Both the position numbers and the translations under genes were made by a program. This document shows positions 2,649 to 14,042 of a stretch of 30,697 nucleotides of DNA, in pieces; within the stretch, counting starts at the first letter, position 1; each line of letters begins with the position of its first letter. Origin of the DNA: an uncultured archaeon (GTDB lineage Archaea > Asgardarchaeota > Thorarchaeia > Thorarchaeales > Thorarchaeaceae); the NCBI GenBank assembly GCA_964354495.1, contig CAYHAA010000007.1:107859-138555 (forward strand). Reading direction: 5' to 3'. Below the pieces are notes generated by a model. That model ran no database searches. It had not been told where the DNA came from and was given only the letters and a program-made list of their open reading frames with translations.

Positions 2649-3650
2649 ATGAAACAGCTTATCAGTACTAAGCACGTTGGAACTGCCATGGACAGCAGGA
2701 CAGTCACAGAGATACTTCGCATTGCCTCAACCATCGACAAGGATGGTTTTGGTGCAGTTGCAGAGGACCTTGCAGGCACCGAGGTTCTTGGCAAGATGTT
2801 CCATGGAGCCACATCTCGGGACGCGCAGATCTGCAACCTGACAACTTCAAGGCTTGGGCTGCGCTCTGTCGACCTCAGTTGGGCCAGTGTTGACGCCACA
2901 GAGTCTGCCTTGCTGTTAGATGAGCTGAGCATGGCAAGTAAGGCGGTCGACCTCCTTGTCACAGCATTCTCCAGCCATGAGACCTTTGGAGATGGCAGGA
3001 AGCTTACAATCAAGTTCCCTGAGTCTTCTGCAGTACCGGTCATCAGCCTACATGATGACTTCTACGACTGGCAGTCTGCTCTCTCGCACCTCCATGGATT
3101 TCAAAGAGAGCTGGGTGACCTTAAGGGAAAGCAGGTTGTGATTGCCTGGGGATTCGGGTCCTCGTTCATCAGTCCTGCCATAGCACACGGGCTCTTGGTC
3201 ACAAGCGCACTGCTAGGCTCAAAGGTCCGTGTAGCGTTTCCCCCTGAGTTCTCGCTTCTGAAACGTGTACTCAAAGAGACCAAGGAAGTCACAGAAGAAA
3301 CAGGCTCTACATTTGAGGAGACCACGGACTTCACGGATGCCTTTCAGGATGCAGATGCAGTGTTCTCCCTCAACTGGCTGAGGCTCGATGACTTCAATCA
3401 TCCGGAGCGAAATACGCAGCATGCAGGCAAGTACAAGGACTGGTATGTGACACAGGACACTCTCTCCAGACAGTGCATCTTTTCGACTGAGCCTCCTCTT
3501 CAACCTGATCTGACGTTCAGCCCTGATCTTCTTGAGGACCAGCGAAACATATCCTCATCCTGGTTGGTTCGTCGGGTCCACGTACTTGCAGCCTCGATTG
3601 TCTATGTTCTGCGTGAGAGCGGGAATGATGGTATCTTTTCTATGGTCTAG
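2649..3650 (+). CDS. Aspartate/ornithine carbamoyltransferase-family protein (YgeW/AOTCase-like) with degenerate catalytic motifs
   Basis: Segments VPVISL, LKGKQVVIAWGF, VRVAFPPEF, AFQDADAVF and RVHVLAAS match the transcarbamylase layout. STRT reads TSRD, HPxQ reads YDWQ and HCLP reads TEPP. Confidence 0.75.
   Translation: MKQLISTKHVGTAMDSRTVTEILRIASTIDKDGFGAVAEDLAGTEVLGKMFHGATSRDAQICNLTTSRLGLRSVDLSWASVDATESALLLDELSMASKAVDLLVTAFSSHETFGDGRKLTIKFPESSAVPVISLHDDFYDWQSALSHLHGFQRELGDLKGKQVVIAWGFGSSFISPAIAHGLLVTSALLGSKVRVAFPPEFSLLKRVLKETKEVTEETGSTFEETTDFTDAFQDADAVFSLNWLRLDDFNHPERNTQHAGKYKDWYVTQDTLSRQCIFSTEPPLQPDLTFSPDLLEDQRNISSSWLVRRVHVLAASIVYVLRESGNDGIFSMV
3514..3650 (+). repeat. Copy A of a 137-bp direct repeat (3' end of the carbamoyltransferase-like gene); copy B at 5411-5547
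   Basis: 3514-3620 vs 5411-5517: 8 mismatches in 107 bp, ungapped; the last 30 bp have 10 mismatches. Confidence 0.95.
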
Positions 3651-3840
3651 CCTCTGATTGTGTCCAGTATGTTGCGGCAGTCAATGGATGCGTTGAAAGA
3701 GTCAGAGCTGTTTCTCTTCTGCTACATTCTTCTAGAGTTACTGAACGGACTCCTGAAGCCCCATCCCCCAAAGGTGTGGAGCCCACTATTGGTTTTCGAG
3801 GTACCACAATCCATCTGTCATTAAGTAGTTGTAGAAACGA

Positions 3841-4060
3841 CTGGCTAATACTTTCATCAAGACTCTTCTACATCTTATCTTCTCCATCGACTCTGTCCCG
3901 GATTTTCATCATTGATTGACCAAATAGAGCGGCTCCAATATGAGCAGTGATAGATGCCGCGAAGGATAAACTTCTCAACTGTGGTGTGAAACTCAGGCCA
4001 TGGTCCTGCCCACCAATTGACTGTTCTTAATAGCTGAACCTCTGAATGTGGAGTGCTAGT
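3841..4060 (-). pseudogene. Decayed fourth hinge/C-terminal cassette fragment
   Basis: Minus-strand translation TSTPHSEVQLLRTVNWWAGPWPEFHTTVEK (WWAGPWP at 3995-4015), frameshift near 3961, then AASITAHIGAALFGQSMMKI (aligns to the AxDLLG block), then an in-frame TAG at 3868-3870. Boundaries approximate. Confidence 0.6.
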
Positions 4061-4089
4061 TCAGCAGAATGCTTCGTATTTGCATCCAT

Positions 4090-4440
4090 CTACCCAGAAT
4101 ATTGATTATATCTAATCGCGCGAAGCTCCCGTAGTTTCGGATAAAATACAGATACAATCGGAATCAGTATTGACAAAAATGACCCTAAGAGGAAGACAAA
4201 CTCTGTGTTGATATCAGGAACAATCATTACTAGTGTACCGAATATCAACCATAGACACCCCGTCACTGCAACACCAACGAATAGAGAAATACCAATCGCT
4301 ATGGAATTATCGACAGCAGGTGTTTTGGACTGTCTAAAATACGCTGATGATTTCCATGCAGCAGATAGCGTCATTACTGCAATAACCAGCCACATACCAA
4401 TGAGGAAGAAGATAGCCTCCATATAGTTAATAGTCTGCAT
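4090..4440 (-). CDS. Small ~3-TM membrane protein, candidate immunity/partner protein of cassette 3
   Basis: 116 aa, three hydrophobic segments, basic loop and tail; GGTGA SD upstream; lies directly downstream of the 4570-5619 ORF. Function inferred from position. Confidence 0.7.
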   Translation of the reverse strand: MQTINYMEAIFFLIGMWLVIAVMTLSAAWKSSAYFRQSKTPAVDNSIAIGISLFVGVAVTGCLWLIFGTLVMIVPDINTEFVFLLGSFLSILIPIVSVFYPKLRELRAIRYNQYSG

Positions 4441-4569
4441 AACTCTTCACCGCGCCAACAGGATGTAGAATCGATTGAAAGAATCATTGCGAGAAACGCC
4501 ATCGAGATTCGAAAAAAGCTTCCTACGAATTCTGTTCTGAATTTCTCTCATTTCGTCTTTCCCTTTCTT

Positions 4570-5619
4570 CTAGATGAGTTCAAGTAGTGTATAAGTGAAA
4601 AACACTGCAGCAGTCAGAAACACCCAGCATACAAGAAGCAATTTGATGCAGAGGAATATTAACGACATATCAGTGAAACCATGTATGAGTCGAGCAAAGA
4701 GTCCCGATGTTTCACTTGCAGCTTTTTCTGCCAACGACAATGCAACTCCAGGTTTTATGAAATCTAGGCACGTAATCGTAAGGAGAAGCCCCAATCCTAT
4801 GACTACGATCATCCAAAATCGATTGAAGGCATTGTCTGTGATTTCGCAGATATTGTTTATAGTAACCGCCATATCAATTACAAAGAGAGCACAATACGCT
4901 ATAATAAGACCTGCCGCAACGGGCCATAGCCCCGGGAATTTCTCACAGGCCATGCAAGCGATTGACGCGCCAACGCCTGTGAGAAAGACAAGATTATGGA
5001 GGAATTGTTCTAAGAACCATTGCTGTACAACGTCCTCTGCTAGAGCATCTAGATATCCCTCATTTTCAAGAGGATCATCAGGAGAGTTAGTTTCGAGTGA
5101 TGCATCTTCCACCTGCGAAAATCCTAGAAGGTCTCTTGCTACCTGATATCTAAATGTAAAGCCCTCGGAAGTTGTCTGTTCAATTCGAACATGTAGTACC
5201 GGCCATGGACCAGTCCACCAACTTTCTACCTCATTCATCAAGTCTTCTGGAGGATTTATCAAACCCATTTGCTGGTACTTGAGAGCTAACTCATCATTAG
5301 AATCAGTTGCAGTTCCATCCTGTCCCTCCGGCTCCGGCACTGACGTGTCCTGGCCAGCATAGAGCCCAATAGCGTGGAGGCGCAGGTCGATGAGGTTGTA
5401 GGAGCTGTACCGTTCAGCCCTGATCTTCTTTAGGACCAGCGAAACATATCCTCCTCCTGGTTGATCCGTCGGGTCTACGTACTTGCAGCCACGATTGTCC
5501 ATGTTCTGCGCGAGAGCAGGACCGCTGGAATTGTTTCTGTCGTCCAGTCTTATTGCACTAGGCAAGAAGGAAGAGAAGAGCCCAGCAGCGATATCTTGGA
5601 TTACCGCAGGAAGCCACAT
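4570..5619 (-). CDS. Orphan C-terminal cassette 3 (hinge plus variant hydrophobic tip); first ~66 codons are not homologous to the large protein and partly derive from an antisense gene fragment
   Basis: From ~5420 reads IRAERYSSYNLIDLRLHAIGLYAGQDTSVPEPE, near-identical to the large protein, then WWTGPWPVLH and YQVARDLLG, then a divergent region with ~4 hydrophobic helices. Confidence 0.85.
   Translation of the reverse strand: MWLPAVIQDIAAGLFSSFLPSAIRLDDRNNSSGPALAQNMDNRGCKYVDPTDQPGGGYVSLVLKKIRAERYSSYNLIDLRLHAIGLYAGQDTSVPEPEGQDGTATDSNDELALKYQQMGLINPPEDLMNEVESWWTGPWPVLHVRIEQTTSEGFTFRYQVARDLLGFSQVEDASLETNSPDDPLENEGYLDALAEDVVQQWFLEQFLHNLVFLTGVGASIACMACEKFPGLWPVAAGLIIAYCALFVIDMAVTINNICEITDNAFNRFWMIVVIGLGLLLTITCLDFIKPGVALSLAEKAASETSGLFARLIHGFTDMSLIFLCIKLLLVCWVFLTAAVFFTYTLLELI
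5314..5420 (-). repeat. Hinge repeat shared with 8294-8400 and 6812-6861
   Basis: 91/107 identical to 8294-8400, ungapped; most differences are synonymous. Confidence 0.95.
5411..5547 (+). pseudogene. Displaced 3' fragment of the carbamoyltransferase-like gene (copy B)
   Basis: Translates FSPDLL*DQRNISSSWLIRRVYVLAATIVHVLRESRTAGIVSVVQ vs FSPDLLEDQRNISSSWLVRRVHVLAASIVYVLRESGNDGIFSMV*; GAG changed to TAG. Confidence 0.92.
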
Positions 5620-5689
5620 GCAAGATAGACGAAGTAGATGAGTTCCACAACGAGCTAGTGACTTTGGTCAAACAGCAGTGACCTAAGGC

Positions 5690-6025
5690 TCAAGTGGACT
5701 CTATCCTAAAGGGAAGCGTGAGAGCCGTAAACAGTACAAGCAACAGCCCCGGCAATGACGCGAGAAATGCAGGAACCAAGAACTCCGGCTCAAAAAACCA
5801 TTCCCACAGGTACCATGAGATAAATGGAAGAGTAAGGAAGAAGCCAAAATACGCTGCTCTTCTTTTCTTTGTTTGTACATGCAGGGCGAATCGCCTACCA
5901 AACCCCTCCGGCTCCCGATGACCAAGTTCATTCATTCTTCGTGAAACTGTATGTCCTCTACATGCATACCCACTTCCTGCCAACATAAGAACTGTACCTA
6001 GCAATATAGCCCAAAGCAATGTCAT
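5690..6025 (-). CDS. Small ~3-TM membrane protein, candidate immunity/partner protein of cassette 2
   Basis: 111 aa: N-terminal hydrophobic helix, Arg/Lys-rich loop, two more hydrophobic segments; GGAG SD; starts 42 nt after the cassette 2 stop. Confidence 0.7.
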   Translation of the reverse strand: MTLLWAILLGTVLMLAGSGYACRGHTVSRRMNELGHREPEGFGRRFALHVQTKKRRAAYFGFFLTLPFISWYLWEWFFEPEFLVPAFLASLPGLLLVLFTALTLPFRIEST

Positions 6026-6067
6026 CTAGTCACGCTCCAAATCCCAGCCCTGATTCAATGTTGAAAG

Positions 6068-7009
6068 TTACCACCATTGTACAGTCATTCCATAATAAGT
6101 TACAATGCACATAGCAATCAGAACTAGCATCGTAAAGAAAACGATGACGTTTGCCCTGCCATGATATCCATCGAGACTATTGAGTCTTGCCCAACCACCA
6201 CTGAAGTAACGATAGGCTTTCAGGAAGCCAAGAGGACTCCAGTGTAGAAACAACACGTTCATAATCCCAATTCCTAAGGCGGTTAGGGCGGCAGTGAGAA
6301 AGGTCCAGCTTGCTTCTGTATTCGACATCTGCATTTGCCGCACAGCGAAAACCATAGACCACATCAACCACATAAAGAAGCTAATGGTAATCAAGCAAGA
6401 AGTAACAATAAGCGCGTTTGACAGCACAACAGGAAGCATGGCCAAGATTTCTAAGATAAGCAGCATTGCCCAGAAAACGACAAGCTGGTATTGTACGACA
6501 TCGTTCCAGAATGAGTTGGCTGAGGTTTTCTCAGCCACAAGCGCGATAAAACCATTCGCTTCATCTTCCGACAAGTCCTCGAAGCCGTCCATCTTGAAGT
6601 CAACGTATTCGATTGAAGCCGAACCAAGCAAATCCGCAGCCATGGCAACTTCGACAGACACCTCACTGGAGAGAGTCCTTTCTAGTATCAAATGCAACAC
6701 AGGCCATGGACCAGTCCATTGCGCAGTCAATGAGTCATTTGCTTCAAGTATCATGTCTTCAGATTCCTGTTCACGCTCTTTTGATAATGACTCTAGCATG
6801 CTATCGCTGGTTCCATCTGCTTCCTCAGGCTCCGGCACTGACGTGTCCTGTCCAGCGTAGAAACAGATGGCACGGATGTGCACGTCCAACAGGGGATTTG
6901 ACCCGTACCGCTGGCCGATGATGACCACGTACTTGACCATCTGGGAGGTTTTTTGGTCAGGTACTTCACATAACTCGCATATTCGATTCTTGTGACTATT
7001 GTGGCTCAT
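6068..7009 (-). CDS. Orphan C-terminal cassette 2 (hinge plus variant hydrophobic tip)
   Basis: VKYVVIIGQRY matches the last strands of the repeat domain, then YAGQDTSVPEPEEADG, WTGPWPVLH and AADLLG, then ~4 divergent hydrophobic helices. No signal peptide. Confidence 0.85.
   Translation of the reverse strand: MSHNSHKNRICELCEVPDQKTSQMVKYVVIIGQRYGSNPLLDVHIRAICFYAGQDTSVPEPEEADGTSDSMLESLSKEREQESEDMILEANDSLTAQWTGPWPVLHLILERTLSSEVSVEVAMAADLLGSASIEYVDFKMDGFEDLSEDEANGFIALVAEKTSANSFWNDVVQYQLVVFWAMLLILEILAMLPVVLSNALIVTSCLITISFFMWLMWSMVFAVRQMQMSNTEASWTFLTAALTALGIGIMNVLFLHWSPLGFLKAYRYFSGGWARLNSLDGYHGRANVIVFFTMLVLIAMCIVTYYGMTVQWW
6812..6861 (-). repeat. Hinge repeat, third copy
   Basis: 43/50 identical to 8294-8343. 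Confidence 0.9.
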
Positions 7010-7581
7010 AAACTGGAAAGCCTCTCCCTAGCAAGTTCACCCAGTTTATCCTCCCGAGAAGAGAAGTATTCAAGGAATCCTCGTTCGGTTGCAGCTGAAC
7101 AATTGGACCCCAAATCATTCACTAGTGCAATTGCCTCCTCCAGGCCCCTCTCCGGAACCTCATCATACTCGGCGTTAGAAGCTGCAACGTGGTAAATCCT
7201 CCTTGCATGTTTCATATCTAATCCTAGCCTCTGGTATCGAAACACGTTAATCAACAATACTCCAATCATGAATAGAAACCCTGGGACCATCCTTTCTATC
7301 ACTGTTGGGAAGACCTCTATCAGGAAGGGGTGTTGACTCTCTTCTGTGAAGAGAGGGAAACCAACAGTGACAAGGATAGCCACGATTTCGTATAGGGCTA
7401 AATTGAGATTAGGGGAAGTAGCAATCCGGGTAAATGCTTCGTAAAGAGATTTCTCTCTCTGAAACCAGACAATTATCTCCATAAACAATAGCACAATGAA
7501 CAGTGTTAATGCTCCGAGTAACAAAGATAGACCAATCATGATTATCACACCATGTCTAGTATCCCTGAATCCAGAACCCAT
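7006..7581 (-). CDS. Membrane protein (~3 TM plus soluble C-terminal tail), candidate cognate immunity/partner of the full-length protein
   Basis: Immediately follows the large gene; real start more likely GTG 7548 or ATG 7539. Hydrophobic N-terminal half and charged helical tail. Confidence 0.75.
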   Translation of the reverse strand: MGSGFRDTRHGVIIMIGLSLLLGALTLFIVLLFMEIIVWFQREKSLYEAFTRIATSPNLNLALYEIVAILVTVGFPLFTEESQHPFLIEVFPTVIERMVPGFLFMIGVLLINVFRYQRLGLDMKHARRIYHVAASNAEYDEVPERGLEEAIALVNDLGSNCSAATERGFLEYFSSREDKLGELARERLSSL

Positions 7582-10500
7582 ATACTCTAACTAGCATCCC
7601 AAGTATAATGGCTATAAACATCATCTTCACACAAAAGATCACCCAAGACATGAAGCAAAATCTCCTTGCCAAGAGATTCTTACCTGCCTGCGTGTAGTGA
7701 TTCCACCATTCTTTAAAGATAAACCATCCGTTTATACCTGCAATAATGCCTTCGATGATGAGGGTGCTAAGTGTTAGAACCAAAATCCCAAAAGCAGCAG
7801 ATGCAGACACTCTCCCAGATAATACTCCATCCCAGAGCGCCGCGAGTCCCAAGAACATAGCAAGAGTATATGCTATAACAAGGACAGCTAGTAAAGCTAG
7901 CTGTGGCGGAGTAGGAAGTTTGGTGACTAATGCAAGAAGTATGTCAATTGCACCCATAACAATCGCCGCTCCCCAAAGAATAGCAGCATCAACAGTGAAT
8001 GCTTCTGCAAAGAGGTCCAATACTCCAGTCTGAGCCATCAGAGTGATTTGGCCATCAGTCAAGTGGTCATCTACTGGAGTATCTACAGCAAAATCCTCCA
8101 AAACGGTGTTTCCAAGGAGGTCAACTGCCATCTGATATGCATATGTAGCACCAGATTCAAGTGTACCCGTCGTTCTTGAGTGCAGCACAGGCCACCACCC
8201 CGTCCACCATGAAATAGTGCCGGCGATTGCAATGGCAATCAGCATGTCAACAAAGCTCACGGCCGCAGGACTGGGGCTGTATCCAGAGGATGCTCCATCT
8301 GCCTCCTCCGGCTCCGGCACCGAGGTGTCTTGACCCGCGTAGAGCCCGATGGCGTGGAGGCGCAGGCCGATGAGGTTGTAGGAGCTGTACCTCTCAGCCC
8401 GTATTGCCAGATACTTGATCTGCCTGAAGGGATTCGCCACAGCCCCGAGGTCCCCGGACTGGATGGTACTGCTCAGGTCCTTGATCTTGTACGTGATGTG
8501 CTCATTTTCTACCTTCAGCTCGCCCATTCTCCAGAAGGAACTTGAGATATAGCCCGTAGTGTCTGATGTAGGGCTTCCACCCTCAGGGTAGTAGACTACG
8601 TGGAAATATCCACGATAGGACTCTATCAAGTCATCGCCCCAATGGATCGATAGCACAATATTCATGTTCACATCAAAGAGGGCAACATACATCTTGCCTA
8701 GGCTTCGATATTGCTGAATCAACTCGCTCTGTATGTAGAAGAGGCGAAGATCATGCAGGATGAACGGATTCTCGAATTCATGCACGTAATTCGGTCCATG
8801 CCAACCTGGAGGACTACTAGGTATTCCTGTTGGTGTCATATATTCTGTCCCGGGAGGTACAACAATCTCACCGGTTGTCACCACGCCCCAGTTGAAATCG
8901 GGATCACATTCGAAATTATCCATGTCATGGCACGAATCCAGCAGTGTGACTGCTCGCTGGGACCACTTCAGGTCGGCCACCACATTGATGTCATGTATCC
9001 TCATCTCGACGAGGGCGTAGTGAGAGTACCTCTGACCTGTAAGGACCACGTACTGTATCACACGCGAAGCATTGTCACACTCGCCCAGTCTGACCATAAC
9101 GCCACCGATACTGGAGAATATCGAGCCCTCGTCTCCTGGGTAGGAGCCCCACCAGAGCTTGCCAGTCTTCATGAAGGAAGAATAGATGTACTCCGGGTAC
9201 TGGGTATAACTAGTCCCATTCTGCATATAGTAGGTATAGAAATAGCCCTTCTTAGAACCAACCCACGAATCACCCCAGCCAATCTCCATAACAATCTGTT
9301 TCTTCTCATCAAACAGACCAACGAACGTCTTTCCCATGGTCGAGAGACTCTGAACCAATTCCCCAACCACAGAGAACTCACTGAGCTGACACAGCCTGAA
9401 CGGTCTGTCCAAGACATGGACGAAATTCGGACCATGCCACCCTGTTGGACTGGCTGGAATATCTGTAGGAGTCATATAGCTCTGTCCAGAAGGGACTGTG
9501 AAGTTGCCATCAGAGACCGTGCCATATCCGAAATCCAGGTCTTTATGGAAATTGTCCATATCATTACAATTGTCGTGAAATACTGTATAGTCAGAAGCTG
9601 CATAATTGAGTTGCACATTATCGATATGTGCATCATTCATCATATAGGAAGAAGAACGGCAGCTCTGTATCACTATGTATTTGACAATACGGTCTGTATT
9701 GATATCAGTCCACTTGAATAGCCGTGTTTCATTCATCTCCGGAACATTAGCATAGATCCCCTGGTGGGGGTCGTATCTAATCTGGACAATTCCTGAGCTA
9801 TCGCCATAGATTGTTGGAGAACTCAGGCTTGCCGACGTGGTGCCATCTTCAAAGTAATATCTTGCTTCAAACGCCTCTCGCTGGTCGCTAACATAAATGG
9901 AAGGCCAGAAGTCGACTACTCTGAGATAGAGCACAATCCTCATTCTATCATCATAAAGACTGACTGAAGTAAGACTTACCTGACCTTCGTCCACCTCATG
10001 GTAGATTGAGAGGTTTGTTGATATGGAACCCATATCACCTATCCTGAAGTATGATGGGAGGGTTCTGACAAACGAGGGACCGTGCCATCCAGTACCAGTT
10101 GGAATGGAGTTGACATAGATGTAGTCGCCAGTGGAGTGAATCGACCCAGTGCTCGTTGTTGCTCCAGGGAATGGAGGCCAAGTTGACTCATATTCATAAT
10201 CAGCTTTCGTACAGGGGTCGGTCCACGATCCCCCAGTCCGCTTAGGGTTGCGTCCTACTATCGGCTCTTGCCAGACTTCATCAACCTTCTGTTTCTGTAT
10301 GTATGTTCCTCCTGCATCAATCTGGCTTAGAGCGATTGAGTCAACTAGCGTTACATTATTGCCGTCAAGAGTGGGTCCGCTGGCAGTCACATTGACAACC
10401 ACTTGCAGGAACTCATGCCCATCGCCTGTGTACTTTAGCCAGCCTGAATAAGTTCCACCAGTGAATACTGGCGTTGAGTTTACCCATTGACCTCCTGTGA

Positions 10501-11515
10501 TATATAGCGCGGTTGTGTAGAATTCGCTGAATAGACCAGATGACTGCAAGTCATATTCGAGCCAATCAGGAGGCAGTGACTCACCCCCCCCGGGAACATA
10601 GGATGAATTGATGTAGTAGTTCTTTGTGTACGTAATATGAAGTACGCCGAGTTGCCGAACAGTCTCAACACCATCGATGTCAACATAGAATCTGTAGTAA
10701 TGCTCAATCTCCGCTCGCAAATCAGCAGGCAGCAAATAGAAGTCGGCAGGTGAGAAGTAGGTTTGAACAACTGCTTCTCTATAGACCATTGAATCTTCTG
10801 TATAGGTTGAGTTGTAGGTATCATCAATGGTCTCAATCTCGTTCAGAATAATCTCTTCAAAGTCCATAACATGAACGCTTTTGCCAGATTCAATGAGTTC
10901 TTTGGCTTTTGTGAGCTCTTCTTCCCTATATTGACTTGCAGCATCCTCATCAAATCCGAATGCCAACATGATAGTCGTAACGATCTCGACATTTGTGACC
11001 TCAGCCGGTCTTGCTCCGGGAACCGTATACAATTTCTTGCCCGAGTCTTGGTCACCATGTCGAATGATGTTTCTGCTGGAGCAAGAAGTGAACAGATGAA
11101 TTGTGGCTACAGAGTCGTCAATAATCTGTGCCATGGTCTTCCAAGCAGTGATGCGACTACCTGTGACTATTCCAAGAGGACCACCATGCGAAACATAGAT
11201 TATGATGCCATCTGTGACTGATTGAGCAACATGGGGATCATCAGTTTTGATTACACTAATTCGGTTTGGAAAGAACGGGTCATCATGAATGAACTTGGAT
11301 AAACGGTTGATGAGGTCCTGTGTTGCCCAATCCGAGTCACTGTCTTGAGACAGTTGAATGATAGTCACCCCGGGACCAGCATTCGCGTCATCAGCAGTCC
11401 AAGCAGTCGCAGCGACGAGCTGCATTGAGAGGACTGCAGTCACAAGAAAGGCACACAGTAATAGCACATGTCTTCTATCGAAACGACCTTCGAATCTCAT
11501 GCTCAATCTCTCCAC
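7556..11515 (-). CDS. Large secreted multidomain protein, candidate polymorphic toxin or recognition protein
   Basis: 1319 aa (ATG at 11500 with upstream GGAG is a likely start). Signal peptide RRHVLLLCAFLVTAVLSMQLVAA; YVSHGG...HLFTSCSS; three GWHGP repeats; hinge shared with the downstream cassettes; ~4 C-terminal hydrophobic helices. Confidence 0.9.
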   Translation of the reverse strand: MERLSMRFEGRFDRRHVLLLCAFLVTAVLSMQLVAATAWTADDANAGPGVTIIQLSQDSDSDWATQDLINRLSKFIHDDPFFPNRISVIKTDDPHVAQSVTDGIIIYVSHGGPLGIVTGSRITAWKTMAQIIDDSVATIHLFTSCSSRNIIRHGDQDSGKKLYTVPGARPAEVTNVEIVTTIMLAFGFDEDAASQYREEELTKAKELIESGKSVHVMDFEEIILNEIETIDDTYNSTYTEDSMVYREAVVQTYFSPADFYLLPADLRAEIEHYYRFYVDIDGVETVRQLGVLHITYTKNYYINSSYVPGGGESLPPDWLEYDLQSSGLFSEFYTTALYITGGQWVNSTPVFTGGTYSGWLKYTGDGHEFLQVVVNVTASGPTLDGNNVTLVDSIALSQIDAGGTYIQKQKVDEVWQEPIVGRNPKRTGGSWTDPCTKADYEYESTWPPFPGATTSTGSIHSTGDYIYVNSIPTGTGWHGPSFVRTLPSYFRIGDMGSISTNLSIYHEVDEGQVSLTSVSLYDDRMRIVLYLRVVDFWPSIYVSDQREAFEARYYFEDGTTSASLSSPTIYGDSSGIVQIRYDPHQGIYANVPEMNETRLFKWTDINTDRIVKYIVIQSCRSSSYMMNDAHIDNVQLNYAASDYTVFHDNCNDMDNFHKDLDFGYGTVSDGNFTVPSGQSYMTPTDIPASPTGWHGPNFVHVLDRPFRLCQLSEFSVVGELVQSLSTMGKTFVGLFDEKKQIVMEIGWGDSWVGSKKGYFYTYYMQNGTSYTQYPEYIYSSFMKTGKLWWGSYPGDEGSIFSSIGGVMVRLGECDNASRVIQYVVLTGQRYSHYALVEMRIHDINVVADLKWSQRAVTLLDSCHDMDNFECDPDFNWGVVTTGEIVVPPGTEYMTPTGIPSSPPGWHGPNYVHEFENPFILHDLRLFYIQSELIQQYRSLGKMYVALFDVNMNIVLSIHWGDDLIESYRGYFHVVYYPEGGSPTSDTTGYISSSFWRMGELKVENEHITYKIKDLSSTIQSGDLGAVANPFRQIKYLAIRAERYSSYNLIGLRLHAIGLYAGQDTSVPEPEEADGASSGYSPSPAAVSFVDMLIAIAIAGTISWWTGWWPVLHSRTTGTLESGATYAYQMAVDLLGNTVLEDFAVDTPVDDHLTDGQITLMAQTGVLDLFAEAFTVDAAILWGAAIVMGAIDILLALVTKLPTPPQLALLAVLVIAYTLAMFLGLAALWDGVLSGRVSASAAFGILVLTLSTLIIEGIIAGINGWFIFKEWWNHYTQAGKNLLARRFCFMSWVIFCVKMMFIAIILGMLVRVYGFWIQGY
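8330..10160 (-). repeat. Three tandem ~213-aa intragenic domain repeats
   Basis: GWHGP codons at 10076-10090, 9428-9442 and 8792-8806 (spacing 648 and 636 bp). Shared V(S/G/A)L(Y/F)D...IV and (V/I)(K/Q)Y(I/V/L)..R.S.Y motifs; repeats 2 and 3 begin D.C.DMDNF. Boundaries approximate. Confidence 0.9.
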
Positions 11516-11929
11516 TCAACCACGTAGCGCCCAAGACAGGTACGAGAACCCAATTGGTCTTGGGGCATATGGTATCCCTTACTCATGGCGGCATATAACA
11601 TGCAGTGCAGAGTGGGGCTCGTGCGTAGACCTCAACCAGAAGGACTATTCGCAGATTCTAAGCCACTTGGCACCGAGGGCAGTATTCCCGGATCCGAATC
11701 AGCTCCGAGCTCACGGGTGAAAAATAACAAAAACAGCACTCTTATCTTAACAAATGGCCACGGAATGTAAATGTACCATTCCTTATTCTATTCGCTCGGG
11801 CATCTGGATGATGAAGAGAGAGTGAGCTCGGCATGGACATAGAACCGGGAGCACATAGACATGGACAGTTGAGAGTGGTGCATGTTCTTCATAGAGCTTT
11901 TATCGAACCGCAGCTGTGTGGCTAGTGAG

Positions 11930-13033
11930 ATGTGGAGATATATCAGGCCTGACGCTTTCGGAGTGTGGAAAGACCCTGAGACCCTACGCCGGTTGCCACG
12001 CTATCGGTCGATCATAGACCAAGAACATCTCGCCAAGTATCTCCTCGCAAGAGGCACTGACTATCATGGAGACCTCTCCCAGACAACAGACAGTCTCTGG
12101 AGCGACCATCGAGAGATGTCCATGAGGTTTCACGAATATGTGCGCGCACTAGACCGCGGCGATGCTGAACCAGCCGGTGGAAATGTCGCACGCCCGACGT
12201 TCCTCGACTTGAAGGTGGAGCTGGCTCATCGCATACTTGAGAACTGTCACTTCTGTGAACGGAAGTGCGGTGCTGACAGGACCCGGGGAAAAAAGGGATG
12301 GTGCAAGCTCGGCCCTGACTCGCGAGTCTCATCCGCATTTCTGCATACAGGAGAGGAGGCTCCCCTTGTTCCCTCTGGAACGATTTTCTTCTCGTCGTGC
12401 TGCTTCGGCTGTGTATTCTGCCAGAACCAGGACATCTCAACAAATCCGAATGCCGGTCACACAGTGAATCCTGAGGGACTTGCCTCCATTGCCGAGTCCC
12501 TGTATCGCGAGGGTGCGTTGAACATCAACTATGTCGGGGGTGACCCAATCCCTAACACACACACGATTCTTGCCTCCATGACACACCAGCAGTCGAACGT
12601 GACGCAGCTCTGGAACTCCAATCTCTATTGCTCCGAGGATACCATGGCACTGCTGGCCGATGTCATCGATGTCTGGCTGCCTGACTTCAAATATGGAAAT
12701 GACGCATGTGCTGAGCGCCTGTCGGGGGTGAAGAACTACTTTGAGGTGGTCTCACGGAATCATCTGCTTGCTTATGAGGCAGGGGAGGTCATCATCCGCC
12801 ATCTGGTCCTACCCAGCCATGTGGAGTGCTGCACGATTCCCATCCTCGAGTGGATTGCAGGGCACATGCCCAATTGCATGGTGAACATCATGGACCAGTA
12901 TCGCCCGGAGCACAGGGTTCTCAAGGAACGCGAAGGGTTCTCCGACATCGCCCGGGGTTTGCATCGCGACGAGATCGACACTGCCCGTGCGAAGGCCGAC
13001 GAGCTCGGTATCTGCTGGCGCCCGGTCAGTTAA
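11930..13033 (+). CDS. PflX-family radical SAM protein
   Basis: CHFCERKC N-terminal cluster, radical SAM CFGCVFC, VGGDP, WNSN, PDFKYGN, IIRHLVLP and MDQYRP. ATG 11930 preferred over 11882. Confidence 0.9.
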   Translation: MWRYIRPDAFGVWKDPETLRRLPRYRSIIDQEHLAKYLLARGTDYHGDLSQTTDSLWSDHREMSMRFHEYVRALDRGDAEPAGGNVARPTFLDLKVELAHRILENCHFCERKCGADRTRGKKGWCKLGPDSRVSSAFLHTGEEAPLVPSGTIFFSSCCFGCVFCQNQDISTNPNAGHTVNPEGLASIAESLYREGALNINYVGGDPIPNTHTILASMTHQQSNVTQLWNSNLYCSEDTMALLADVIDVWLPDFKYGNDACAERLSGVKNYFEVVSRNHLLAYEAGEVIIRHLVLPSHVECCTIPILEWIAGHMPNCMVNIMDQYRPEHRVLKEREGFSDIARGLHRDEIDTARAKADELGICWRPVS

Positions 13034-13091
13034 CGGTGGACAGGTCACAACATTCTAATGCTGACGCACGATGTCTTCGCTGTGGAATACT

Positions 13092-13331
13092 ATGTGCCTA
13101 GCTGTTCCTGCCCTAGTCCTGTCGATTGATGGGGACTTTGCAATGGTGGACTTCGGGGGCGCTAGCAAGAAGGTCTGCGTCACCCTGCTCCCGGGCCTGA
13201 AGGTCGGAGAGTACGTCATTGTCCACACAGGGTATGCCATCGAGAAGATGAAGGCTGATGAGGCACAGAAGACCCTCGCCCTCTTCGAAGAGATGGCACA
13301 GATGGAAGATGAGATGAAGAGCCTAGAGTAA
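13092..13331 (+). CDS. hypC: HypC/HybG/HupF hydrogenase maturation chaperone
   Basis: MCLAVP N-terminus and VGEYVIVHTGYAI; true start is ATG 13092 so that Cys2 is exposed. Confidence 0.95.
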   Translation: MCLAVPALVLSIDGDFAMVDFGGASKKVCVTLLPGLKVGEYVIVHTGYAIEKMKADEAQKTLALFEEMAQMEDEMKSLE

Positions 13332-13418
13332 CATAACTGCCATTGACCGGCTCTCGGCTCACCACAACTGCGTCGTTCGCTTCTTATTTCAGGTTTCGAA
13401 CAAGATATCGAAGAGCCC

Positions 13419-13859
13419 TCAAATTGCAGTCCGGTTTTCTGAAAGCACATCATCCTCCAGCACTTCACGCCACACTCGACGATACTTCCAAGTGACTTCT
13501 ACCAACAGGACACACATGACAACTGTCGTTCCGATTGCAGTGAACTGCGATGCATAACCAAACATGATTACAAAGAGTGGTGCAACAAGAAGAGCACCCC
13601 AATAGTAACTGACAACGAGCGCTGGAGTAAGGGAAATCACGCAGAACAGAGTGTCAAGAGTCCTCCGATGAGTTCTATAAGTCTTCAGAATGTCAGCTGA
13701 TGAGCCCATCAATCTCAATGACAAGGCCTGAATCAGTATAGAAATGGATACTATGAGGATACCAGTAAAGAATAGAACAACAGCACACACAATCATCACG
13801 ACAAAGACCACGAGTGGATCTAGCATCCAGAAAACCCCCAATTCCATGCTGAGCTGCAA
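13419..13859 (-). CDS. Small 3-4 TM membrane protein of unknown function inside an insert flanked by hypC 3' repeats
   Basis: 146 aa, hydrophobic segments separated by a basic loop (KTYRTHRR); lower GC than hypC; start may be ATG 13847 or 13826. Confidence 0.65.
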   Translation of the reverse strand: MQLSMELGVFWMLDPLVVFVVMIVCAVVLFFTGILIVSISILIQALSLRLMGSSADILKTYRTHRRTLDTLFCVISLTPALVVSYYWGALLVAPLFVIMFGYASQFTAIGTTVVMCVLLVEVTWKYRRVWREVLEDDVLSENRTAI

Positions 13860-13956
13860 GTGACAGCAACGGTAGACCAGTCAAATTAACACAGATCCTA
13901 CTGCAATTTAACTTATCGTCAAGAGGCTGACAGGCCGCTGAGCAGAGTCTGTTTCT

Positions 13957-14042
13957 AGAAGATGAAGGCTGATGAGGAGAAGATTCTTGTCCTCTCCGAA
14001 GAAACAATTCAGATGGAAGCTGAGATGGATAGCAAGCAGTAA
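13957..14042 (+). pseudogene. Displaced, degenerate 3' fragment of hypC
   Basis: KMKADE-EKILVLSEETIQMEAEMDSKQ* vs hypC KMKADEAQKTLALFEEMAQMEDEMKSLE*. First 21 bp identical to 13243-13263; 68/86 overall with one 3-bp gap; the stop codon aligns. Confidence 0.9.

Follow-up and report, generated by a model that had tools for sequence, protein, structure and literature searches.

Organisation of the locus

The genome of an uncultured archaeon of the family Thorarchaeaceae (Asgardarchaeota; GenBank assembly GCA_964354495.1) contains, within a stretch of 30,697 nucleotides (nt) of contig CAYHAA010000007.1 (positions 107,859 to 138,555 of the forward strand; hereafter the window, numbered from its first letter), an island of ~8 kb that encodes a large carrier protein and an array of shorter genes repeating the C-terminal part of the carrier, each intact copy being accompanied by its own small membrane-protein gene. 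The open reading frame (ORF) list gives six ORFs and one remnant in the island, all on the minus strand, and the polymorphic-locus architecture of the whole is well supported. The features are as follows.

3654-11863, minus strand: whole island, between a carbamoyltransferase-like gene (2649-3650, plus strand) and a radical-SAM gene (11882-13033, plus strand)
7556-11515, minus strand: full-length carrier gene, 1319 amino acids (aa) (ORF)
8294-8341, minus strand: hinge of the full-length gene, YAGQDTSVPEPEEADG, residues 1059-1074, ending in a near-invariant D-G (DNA repeat D1)
7559-8293, minus strand: cassette 1, residues 1075-1319 of the carrier (from the structural model; tip cluster 0)
8180-8206 and 8111-8122, minus strand: cassette 1 motifs WTGWWPVLH and DLLG, respectively
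7006-7581, minus strand: partner 1, 191 aa, about three predicted transmembrane helices, type 1 (ORF)
6068-7009, minus strand: orphan cassette 2, 313 aa, with its hinge at 6812-6859 (ORF)
5690-6025, minus strand: partner 2, 111 aa, small transmembrane protein, type 2 (ORF)
4570-5619, minus strand: 349-aa ORF with the second C-terminal copy (ORF)
4570-5424, minus strand: orphan cassette 3, the true cassette part of the 349-aa ORF (ORF and repeat comparison)
4090-4440, minus strand: partner 3, 116 aa, about four predicted transmembrane helices, type 2 (ORF)
about 3841-4060, minus strand: degenerate, frame-shifted remnant of a fourth cassette (repeat and profile match)
5411-5550, plus strand: relic of the carbamoyltransferase-like gene (3' end; 86% identity with 3514-3653)

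The genes are tightly packed, with the start of partner 1 overlapping the end of the carrier gene by 26 nt and the ATG of cassette 2 overlapping the stop codon of partner 1 by 4 nt. An earlier sequence-only reading of the window had described a 1319-aa gene with downstream C-terminal copies, a hinge and a W-motif common to them, and a membrane-protein gene after each intact copy, and in these respects it proves correct. The copies are the 313-aa and 349-aa ORFs and a remnant of 23 residues, and the membrane-protein genes are the ORFs of 191, 111 and 116 aa. The hinge (YAGQDTSVPEPE..DG) is common to all three long ORFs and was recovered by the repeat finder as a 107-nt DNA repeat (5314-5420, 6812-6918 and 8294-8400; 69-85% identity), and the W-motif as a 26-nt repeat in four copies (3987-4012, 5192-5217, 6693-6718 and 8181-8206). 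A search of the remnant in three frames shows that just 23 residues (NWWAGPWPEFH...) fit the family profile (14.5 bits, E about 1e-6), and it keeps the core of the W-block alone (3987-4012). The same reading had counted the 349-aa ORF among the intact copies; the cassette at 4570-5424 is indeed intact, but upstream of about nt 5424 the ORF begins with ~65-70 codons that read, in antisense, a second copy of the 3' end of the carbamoyltransferase-like gene, and these are therefore foreign to the cassette. All of the copies follow one plan, in which an acidic hinge running to D-G-(T/S) is followed by a beta block containing WxGxWPxLH...DLLG and a membrane tail of ~160 aa with four helices, and within the whole 3.3-Mb genome this module is confined to the island.

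Exchange of the C-terminal modules

Comparison of the carrier with its orthologs reveals 55-75% identity along the body and 15-35% right after the hinge, and among 26 full-length proteins the identities of the N-domain and the tail are uncorrelated (Spearman 0.065). The extreme case is the pair P0007 and P0008, which have N-domains that are 97% identical and tails that are 19% identical; they can be aligned as far as ...SAPMYADAT and share nothing beyond it. The border itself, D-G-(T/S), is nearly invariant in 45-50 cassettes with divergent flanks, follows a linker rich in proline and glutamate, and lies in a hinge that is disordered in the model. Tails carried by a full-length gene in one genome also have relatives among the orphans of another: the full-length tail of genome G020 is 67% identical to an orphan in G016, and that of the window is 48% identical to an orphan in G007. 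The tip of cassette 2, itself an orphan, is 60% identical to an orphan in G025. The modules are swapped at the hinge by recombination, both within and between genomes, and the proteins consist of a conserved body and a variable C-terminal module exchanged at a conserved border.

In another sample, a contig with a depth of about 5 (run X6) agrees with the window over a segment reaching from the end of partner 1 across the first 66 codons of cassette 2; the match ends at nt 6811, exactly after the D-G codons of cassette 2, and is followed by 211 unlike letters. This break lies on the predicted border, although as a single low-depth contig it is only a hint.

Linkage of modules and partner genes

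Tails and partners were clustered independently, the latter by BLAST. At 13 loci, 45 of the 48 cassettes with a tail of at least 80 aa have a small membrane-protein gene on the same strand no more than 260 nt downstream, and two types recur among these partners. Type 1 proteins, including the 191-aa partner, are 175-235 aa long with about three predicted transmembrane helices and a cytoplasmic tail containing R-(D/E)-D-x-(I/V)-G; type 2 proteins, including those of 111 and 116 aa, have 105-150 aa and three to four predicted helices. For partner 1 the type 1 motif is written S-x-R-(D/E)-D-x-(I/L)-G. The gene downstream of a tip cluster 0 module belongs to partner cluster 0 in 13 of 13 cases (12 of them type 1 proteins of 175-234 aa), tip cluster 4 occurs with partner cluster 1 in all four cases, and the nine tail pairs with at least 48% identity all have similar partners (about 42-78% identity). 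The between-genome association of tails and partners was reached by none of 2000 permutations.

Two of the three pairs in the window have clear counterparts elsewhere. The G007 tip that shares 48% identity with cassette 1 has a partner sharing 43% with partner 1, and partner 2 is 45% identical to the gene after the G025 cassette; as pairs, cassette 2 and its 111-aa partner are matched in G025, G023 and G007, and cassette 1 and its 191-aa partner in G007. The single relative found for partner 3 (30% identity, E 4e-8) lies inside another cassette array (G037:C16). Judged by these comparisons module and partner travel together, and at the level of genomic linkage there is a putative cognate gene downstream that covaries with the C-terminal module.

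Relatives of the partners also occur on their own. Stand-alone genes for proteins of 190-197 aa with the type 1 motif AER(E/S)DWIGT are present at 5092-5664 of locus L053 (G050) and 5127-5720 of L054 (G040), beside small transmembrane genes, and are conserved in congeners in which no cassette was found; they may represent a housekeeping ancestor of the partner family, or immunity-only loci. In G010, where no cassette was detected, two genes of locus L056 (4188-4559 and 8605-9048) are 59% and 72% identical to array genes elsewhere, which would suit an immunity role for the partners but is no proof of one.

We read the locus as a strain-discriminating system of cassettes and cognate partners, because its genetic logic matches that of polymorphic toxin/immunity loci and of the VARTIG module of Thermococcales (PMC8416519).

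Occurrence and maintenance of the arrays

A search of 1.84 billion representative proteins with the cassette profile (alignment A6) recovers 271 clusters, of which 233 reach E ≤ 1e-10, and orphan-sized proteins (100-560 aa) outnumber full-length ones in this library by ~10:1. Full-length carrier homologs are 45-62% identical to the carrier, and all of the named ones come from Thorarchaeota or Promethearchaeia metagenome-assembled genomes, in agreement with the archaeal host that had been supposed from the letters of the window. In a sample of the phylum, the cassette is present in 28 of 76 other genomes of the family to which the window belongs, and in none of 224 genomes that represent 29 further families. 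Its occurrence is patchy: three of 24 genomes of the same genus contain it, yet it occurs in 12 of the family's 16 genera (13 with the genome of the window itself). Copy numbers reach at least 8-16 per genome and single arrays contain up to nine cassettes.

A full-length gene followed by cassette/partner pairs is seen here and at no fewer than 12 other loci. The polymorphic architecture postulated for the window recurs in many genomes; both tips and partners vary among them, so the loci lack the invariance that would have spoken against that proposal. Locus L005 is arranged differently, with orphan cassettes both downstream of the full-length gene and upstream of it on the opposite strand in a divergent array, so that cassettes need not run in the same direction as the carrier.

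An orphan-orphan pair from two genomes has ratios of nonsynonymous to synonymous substitution rates (dN/dS) of 0.08 for the tail and 0.24 for the partner, with dS above 1; other orphan pairs have ratios of 0.13-0.36 and recent within-array duplicates 0.5-0.7. These values indicate that orphan cassettes are under purifying selection. The possibility that the orphans are decaying pseudogenes was considered and rejected, as dN/dS is far below 1, with the fourth remnant in the window as the exception. About a quarter of the orphan-sized library proteins are called from the same conserved methionine in the last lectin strand (...VDMRIHDINVVADL; profile position 23), which may be a shared internal start or simply the first ATG after upstream decay.

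The variable modules form one membrane protein family

Although the tips had been described as different from one another, they are not unrelated folds: one profile covers the tail from end to end in 233 clusters of the database (E ≤ 1e-10), and the alternative of unrelated domains was rejected for this reason. The three cassettes of the window nonetheless fall in three different tail clusters. The tail is about 155-175 aa long in most of 46 intact cassettes, so that the original estimate of 130-150 aa for the tip is corrected to about 160 aa. In the model of the C-terminal 460 residues of the carrier (pLDDT 90) the last lectin repeat is followed by the disordered acidic linker and then by the cassette, which has one helix, a four-stranded sheet bearing WxGxWPxLH and DLLG, an amphipathic helix, and four long hydrophobic helices. 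Across 45 cassettes the net charge is -12 before the helices (hinge and W-block) and +1.4 in loop 3, between helices 3 and 4, a predicted pattern that fits a resident N-out domain with four transmembrane helices that Sec would insert into the membrane of the producing cell. The proposal that the tips are pore-forming toxins is not borne out by these properties, and no toxin domain was matched in the C-terminal module in Pfam, NCBIfam, PADLOC, PHROGs or PDB sequences.

The resemblance of the tail to a resident N-out anchor raises the question of whether the carrier is an ordinary membrane-anchored lectin or adhesin, the four-helix anchor of which depends on a small membrane protein of its own as chaperone or stabiliser; the arrays would then be leftovers of gene conversion and duplication, with diversity driven by, for example, viruses or membrane-targeting agents that exploit the anchor or the juxtamembrane block. 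The stand-alone type 1-like genes in cassette-free congeners also hint at a housekeeping origin of the partner family. This explanation appears quite unlikely, however, given that the orphans are under purifying selection, that arrays reach nine cassettes, that the exchange border is sharp and conserved, and that tail and partner are strictly linked. A plain anchor has, moreover, no reason to be the most variable part of a protein with an exposed body that stays 55-75% identical, and a search of viral contigs gave 37 pattern matches but zero relatives.

The carrier protein

The carrier is composed, in order, of a hydrophobic signal-like N-terminus, a caspase/CHAT-like alpha/beta domain (residues ~50-210, about nt 10886-11368), a beta domain, three repeats of ~210 aa, the hinge, and the cassette. 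Its N-terminal 660 residues were modelled at pLDDT 79 as a long hydrophobic helix, an alpha/beta domain and beta sandwiches. Within the alpha/beta domain His105-Gly106 and Cys140 are invariant in 25 homologs, each after one of two consecutive strands; in the numbering of the window the His and Cys are H110 and C145. The succession of strands and helices in the model agrees with a caspase-hemoglobinase fold. In the Atlas, sequence features place the domain nearest to CHAT, DUF6345 and Peptidase_C25 (at 0.90, no more than a lead), and shape places it, weakly, near CHAT and Peptidase_C14 (TM 0.2-0.5); the domain falls below every Pfam threshold. The caspase-like domain recognised previously in the carrier is thus favoured by its invariant His-Gly and Cys and by its CHAT and C14 look-alikes but falls short of being established, and we regard assignment to the caspase-like clan CD peptidases as plausible.

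Clan CD peptidases (caspase, CHAT, gingipain) act as releasing peptidases in some polymorphic toxins, and the domain resembles them in having an alpha/beta structure with an invariant His-Gly and then a Cys following successive strands. With these residues, the CHAT, C14 and C25 look-alikes and a near-invariant Asp in the disordered hinge, a releasing peptidase is possible.

The three body repeats are predicted to have the jelly-roll fold of concanavalin A (ConA)-like lectins, carbohydrate-binding modules (CBM) and GH16 enzymes. The best match to a repeat is 5ly8, CBM2 of a phage Dit protein (Foldseek E 1.3e-7; VIA Z 18.6, root-mean-square deviation 3.1 over 199 residues), followed by calreticulin, L-type lectins and GH16 (Z 11-13), and on these models the repeats have a concanavalin A-like lectin/glucanase fold. 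This lectin domain lies inside both models and filled the hit lists of the fold searches (PDB Foldseek, VIA wide and Atlas). No trafficking domain or secretion system (T5SS, T6SS, T7SS and others) was found among the ORFs of the island or by Pfam in the carrier.

Comparison with known systems

None of the six island proteins has a meaningful match in Pfam, NCBIfam, PADLOC or PHROGs, profile searches of PDB sequences with the N-part, the tail and a partner gave nothing below E 0.27, and an Atlas feature search found no usable match for the tail or for the 191-aa partner. The suspicion that this is an unrecognised family is supported by the lack of matches in Pfam, NCBIfam, PADLOC, PHROGs and PDB sequences. 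Full-text searches found no published system of this kind in Thorarchaeota or other Asgard archaea, the 2019 survey of archaeal polymorphic toxins lying outside their scope. New in this case are the cassette, the partners, the carrier and the lineage, but not the way in which the locus is organised.

The organisation is that of polymorphic toxin systems in the sense of Zhang et al. 2012, as that concept is relayed in PMC6393860 and PMC8416519. With CdiA/CdiI, Rhs, MafB and LXG systems the island shares a long secreted protein whose body is conserved and whose C-terminus varies, a short conserved border motif, a cognate small gene directly downstream, arrays of orphan C-termini and partners, exchange between genomes, and possibly an in-built releasing peptidase. 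Membrane-depolarising tips with transmembrane immunity proteins are likewise found in some of the bacterial systems. The differences from the bacterial polymorphic toxins are equally clear. The carrier has no TPS, FHA, YD, LXG or PAAR homology and no Pfam hit, the island has neither a recognisable toxin domain nor a dedicated secretion system, and the host is an Asgard archaeon. Hallmarks of contact-dependent inhibition (CDI) and Rhs proteins (TPS/FHA repeats with a VENN border, and YD repeats with DPxGL) gave no Pfam or NCBIfam hit, and the border here is D-G-(T/S) as opposed to VENN in CDI and DPxGL in Rhs. Classical polymorphic toxins carry unrelated toxin folds; the tips described here all belong to one family with four transmembrane helices that resembles a resident membrane domain.

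The closest archaeal parallel is the VARTIG module, in which a large arCOG07710-type protein with a signal peptide stands first in an array, recombination with shorter homologs downstream makes its C-terminal part hypervariable, each variant tends to be followed by certain small membrane proteins, and no toxin domain was found; the study that describes it reports no counterpart outside Thermococcales (PMC8416519). The island is likewise an archaeal array with short C-terminal homologs and variant-specific small membrane proteins, and the same three kinds of hypotheses apply, but the analogy is one of organisation only. The variable unit of VARTIG is an extracellular immunoglobulin (Ig) domain with a putative sorting signal, whereas here it is a beta block with a tail of four transmembrane helices, and the VARTIG body is Ig/CARDB-like, whereas this one is ConA-like lectin and caspase-like. 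No Ig or CARDB domain was hit by Pfam in the island carrier, and no sequence relationship between the island proteins and VARTIG was detected.

In the IdsD/IdsE system of Proteus mirabilis a large protein and a smaller membrane protein have variable membrane-associated regions that would need to match. The tails of the island show the same pattern of one fold with many alleles, but IdsD is delivered by a type VI secretion system, that system is not known to be organised in orphan cassette arrays, and the island proteins have no family hit. By analogy with IdsD/IdsE, or with the third of the VARTIG hypotheses, the island could serve a non-lethal form of kin recognition, in which the lectin body contacts cells and the module and its partner are an identity pair for compatibility in adhesion, fusion or exchange. 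The evidence of architecture, recombination and covariation applies equally to such a system, the conserved body is built of lectin-like domains of the adhesion type, and variants that are all of one fold and one length are characteristic of recognition determinants, in contrast to toxin repertoires. The variable part is nevertheless membrane-proximal or embedded, with no obvious exposure to other cells, the contact surface would be expected in the outermost lectin domains, and these are the conserved part, and the role of spare partner genes is less obvious than under immunity. We consider non-lethal kin recognition doubtful, if with an appreciable chance of being right, and rank it second, after the effector/immunity mechanism described below.

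Insertion of the island and its surroundings

In three congeners with the same purB-to-hypC neighbourhood, a gap of 5-70 nt separates the carbamoyltransferase-like and radical-SAM genes that flank the island, which is therefore an insertion between two genes lying side by side in these relatives. A 112-kb contig from a ~93%-identical relative (run X5) joins 3653 to 11864 with 3811 other letters in place of the 8210 nt of the array; since this relative carries a different insert of ~3.8 kb, the insertion site is a variable hot spot. The ORF survey identified no integrase or transposase in the island, and there are zero tRNA genes in the window that could serve as integration sites.

The absence of mobility genes is among the observations that would be expected of selfish addiction pairs, in which a cis-acting membrane-toxin tail and an antitoxin-like partner resist loss and have no intercellular role. 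Gene coupling is tight, with some overlaps of stop and start codons, and partner-only remnants occur in a genome in which no cassette was found. Neither the fusion of the tail to a conserved extracellular lectin body of 1000 aa with a signal-like N-terminus nor the exchange at a hinge within the carrier gene is explained by such pairs, and we consider them very improbable.

The relic 3' end at 5411-5550 is the scar of the event that brought cassette 3, partner 3 and the remnant, which thus arrived separately, together with a new 3' end for the flanking gene. The carbamoyltransferase-like gene (2649-3650, plus strand) matches Pfam OTCace (E 1e-10); its last ~140 nt were replaced on the arrival of cassette 3, and the relic is the old end. 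The two homologies overlap at 5411-5420, which suggests a microhomology junction.

Beyond the radical-SAM gene, two minus-strand ORFs for small membrane proteins of 137 and 146 aa (13055-14042) adjoin the hypC-like region. The segment 16685-28029, with a low GC content (0.40-0.43, compared with about 0.50 elsewhere), is probably another accessory island, concerned with surface glycans. It encodes three glycosyltransferases of the GT4 family, a polysaccharide flippase resembling Wzx, and a protein of 839 aa without a Pfam match. A promoter and terminator scan of the window was at chance level, its models being of bacterial type and not applicable to archaea.

A proposed membrane effector/immunity system

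The carrier, with its signal-like N-terminus, has a conserved body, in which the caspase/CHAT-like domain is followed by lectin repeats, and beyond the hinge an exchangeable beta block and four-helix tail, with spare modules downstream that each have their own small membrane-protein gene. We propose that each tail binds its cognate partner in the membrane, and that the two would serve as effector and immunity protein or, in a milder form, as a pair of identity markers by which strains are told apart. The tail would be harmful, or would signal, on meeting a membrane without the matching partner, and the spare partners would protect against the tails of neighbours. The conserved Asp of the hinge (D1073) may be a cleavage site for the carrier's own caspase-like domain, and the routes considered by which a tail might reach another cell are vesicles, membrane contact or membrane fusion. 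A lineage-specific polymorphic C-terminal cassette system with a membrane effector/immunity mechanism is, in our analysis, the single most likely version of events, with a probability of roughly 0.45.

Several observations weigh against an effector/immunity mechanism. There is no recognisable toxin domain and no secretion or delivery apparatus in the island, the tails all belong to one homologous family of constant length, and their helices are strongly hydrophobic, with a charge pattern that fits Sec insertion into the membrane of the producer. The similarity of partners fades at lower tip similarity; the best tail match of cassette 3 in another genome has 31% identity, and its partner bears no relation to partner 3. 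Covariation alone is also no proof of binding, because neighbouring genes are co-inherited. A prediction of the complex between the full-length tail and the 191-aa partner, from alignments of 12 rows each, scored 0.01 against a mark of 0.32 and speaks neither for nor against binding. Many orphan ATGs abut the preceding gene, so the orphans may be expressed as short membrane proteins, and separately expressed short membrane orphans are unusual among toxin orphans. As to RNA, no public run is listed as containing the locus. Since the tails are one fold family with the look of resident proteins and no delivery is visible, the anchor-plus-chaperone and selfish-pair explanations stay alive beside the effector/immunity system.

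Archaeal polymorphic toxin systems were predictions lacking experimental characterisation as of 2021 (Makarova et al. 2021, PMC8416519). The island has the full genetic signature of a polymorphic effector/partner locus in which every component is previously undescribed, within one archaeal family. Asgard archaea are the closest prokaryotic relatives of eukaryotes, and to our knowledge next to nothing has been established about their systems of conflict and recognition. A more specific proposal, which we put forward tentatively and think unlikely as it stands, is that the Thorarchaeota lineage has an allorecognition or contact-dependent competition system of its own invention, in which a lectin-like surface protein carries a swappable membrane identity module with a cognate membrane partner. 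If this is true, the action of a module on a neighbour requires membrane material to travel from cell to cell by way of vesicles, protrusions or transient fusion, and the system would therefore offer genetic access to the exchange of membrane between cells. With an integral-membrane variable unit, either membrane proteins move between Thorarchaeota cells or cassette arrays can evolve to serve a purely cell-autonomous role, and the 271 cassette clusters with their linked partners would constitute a natural specificity matrix for protein-protein recognition in the membrane.

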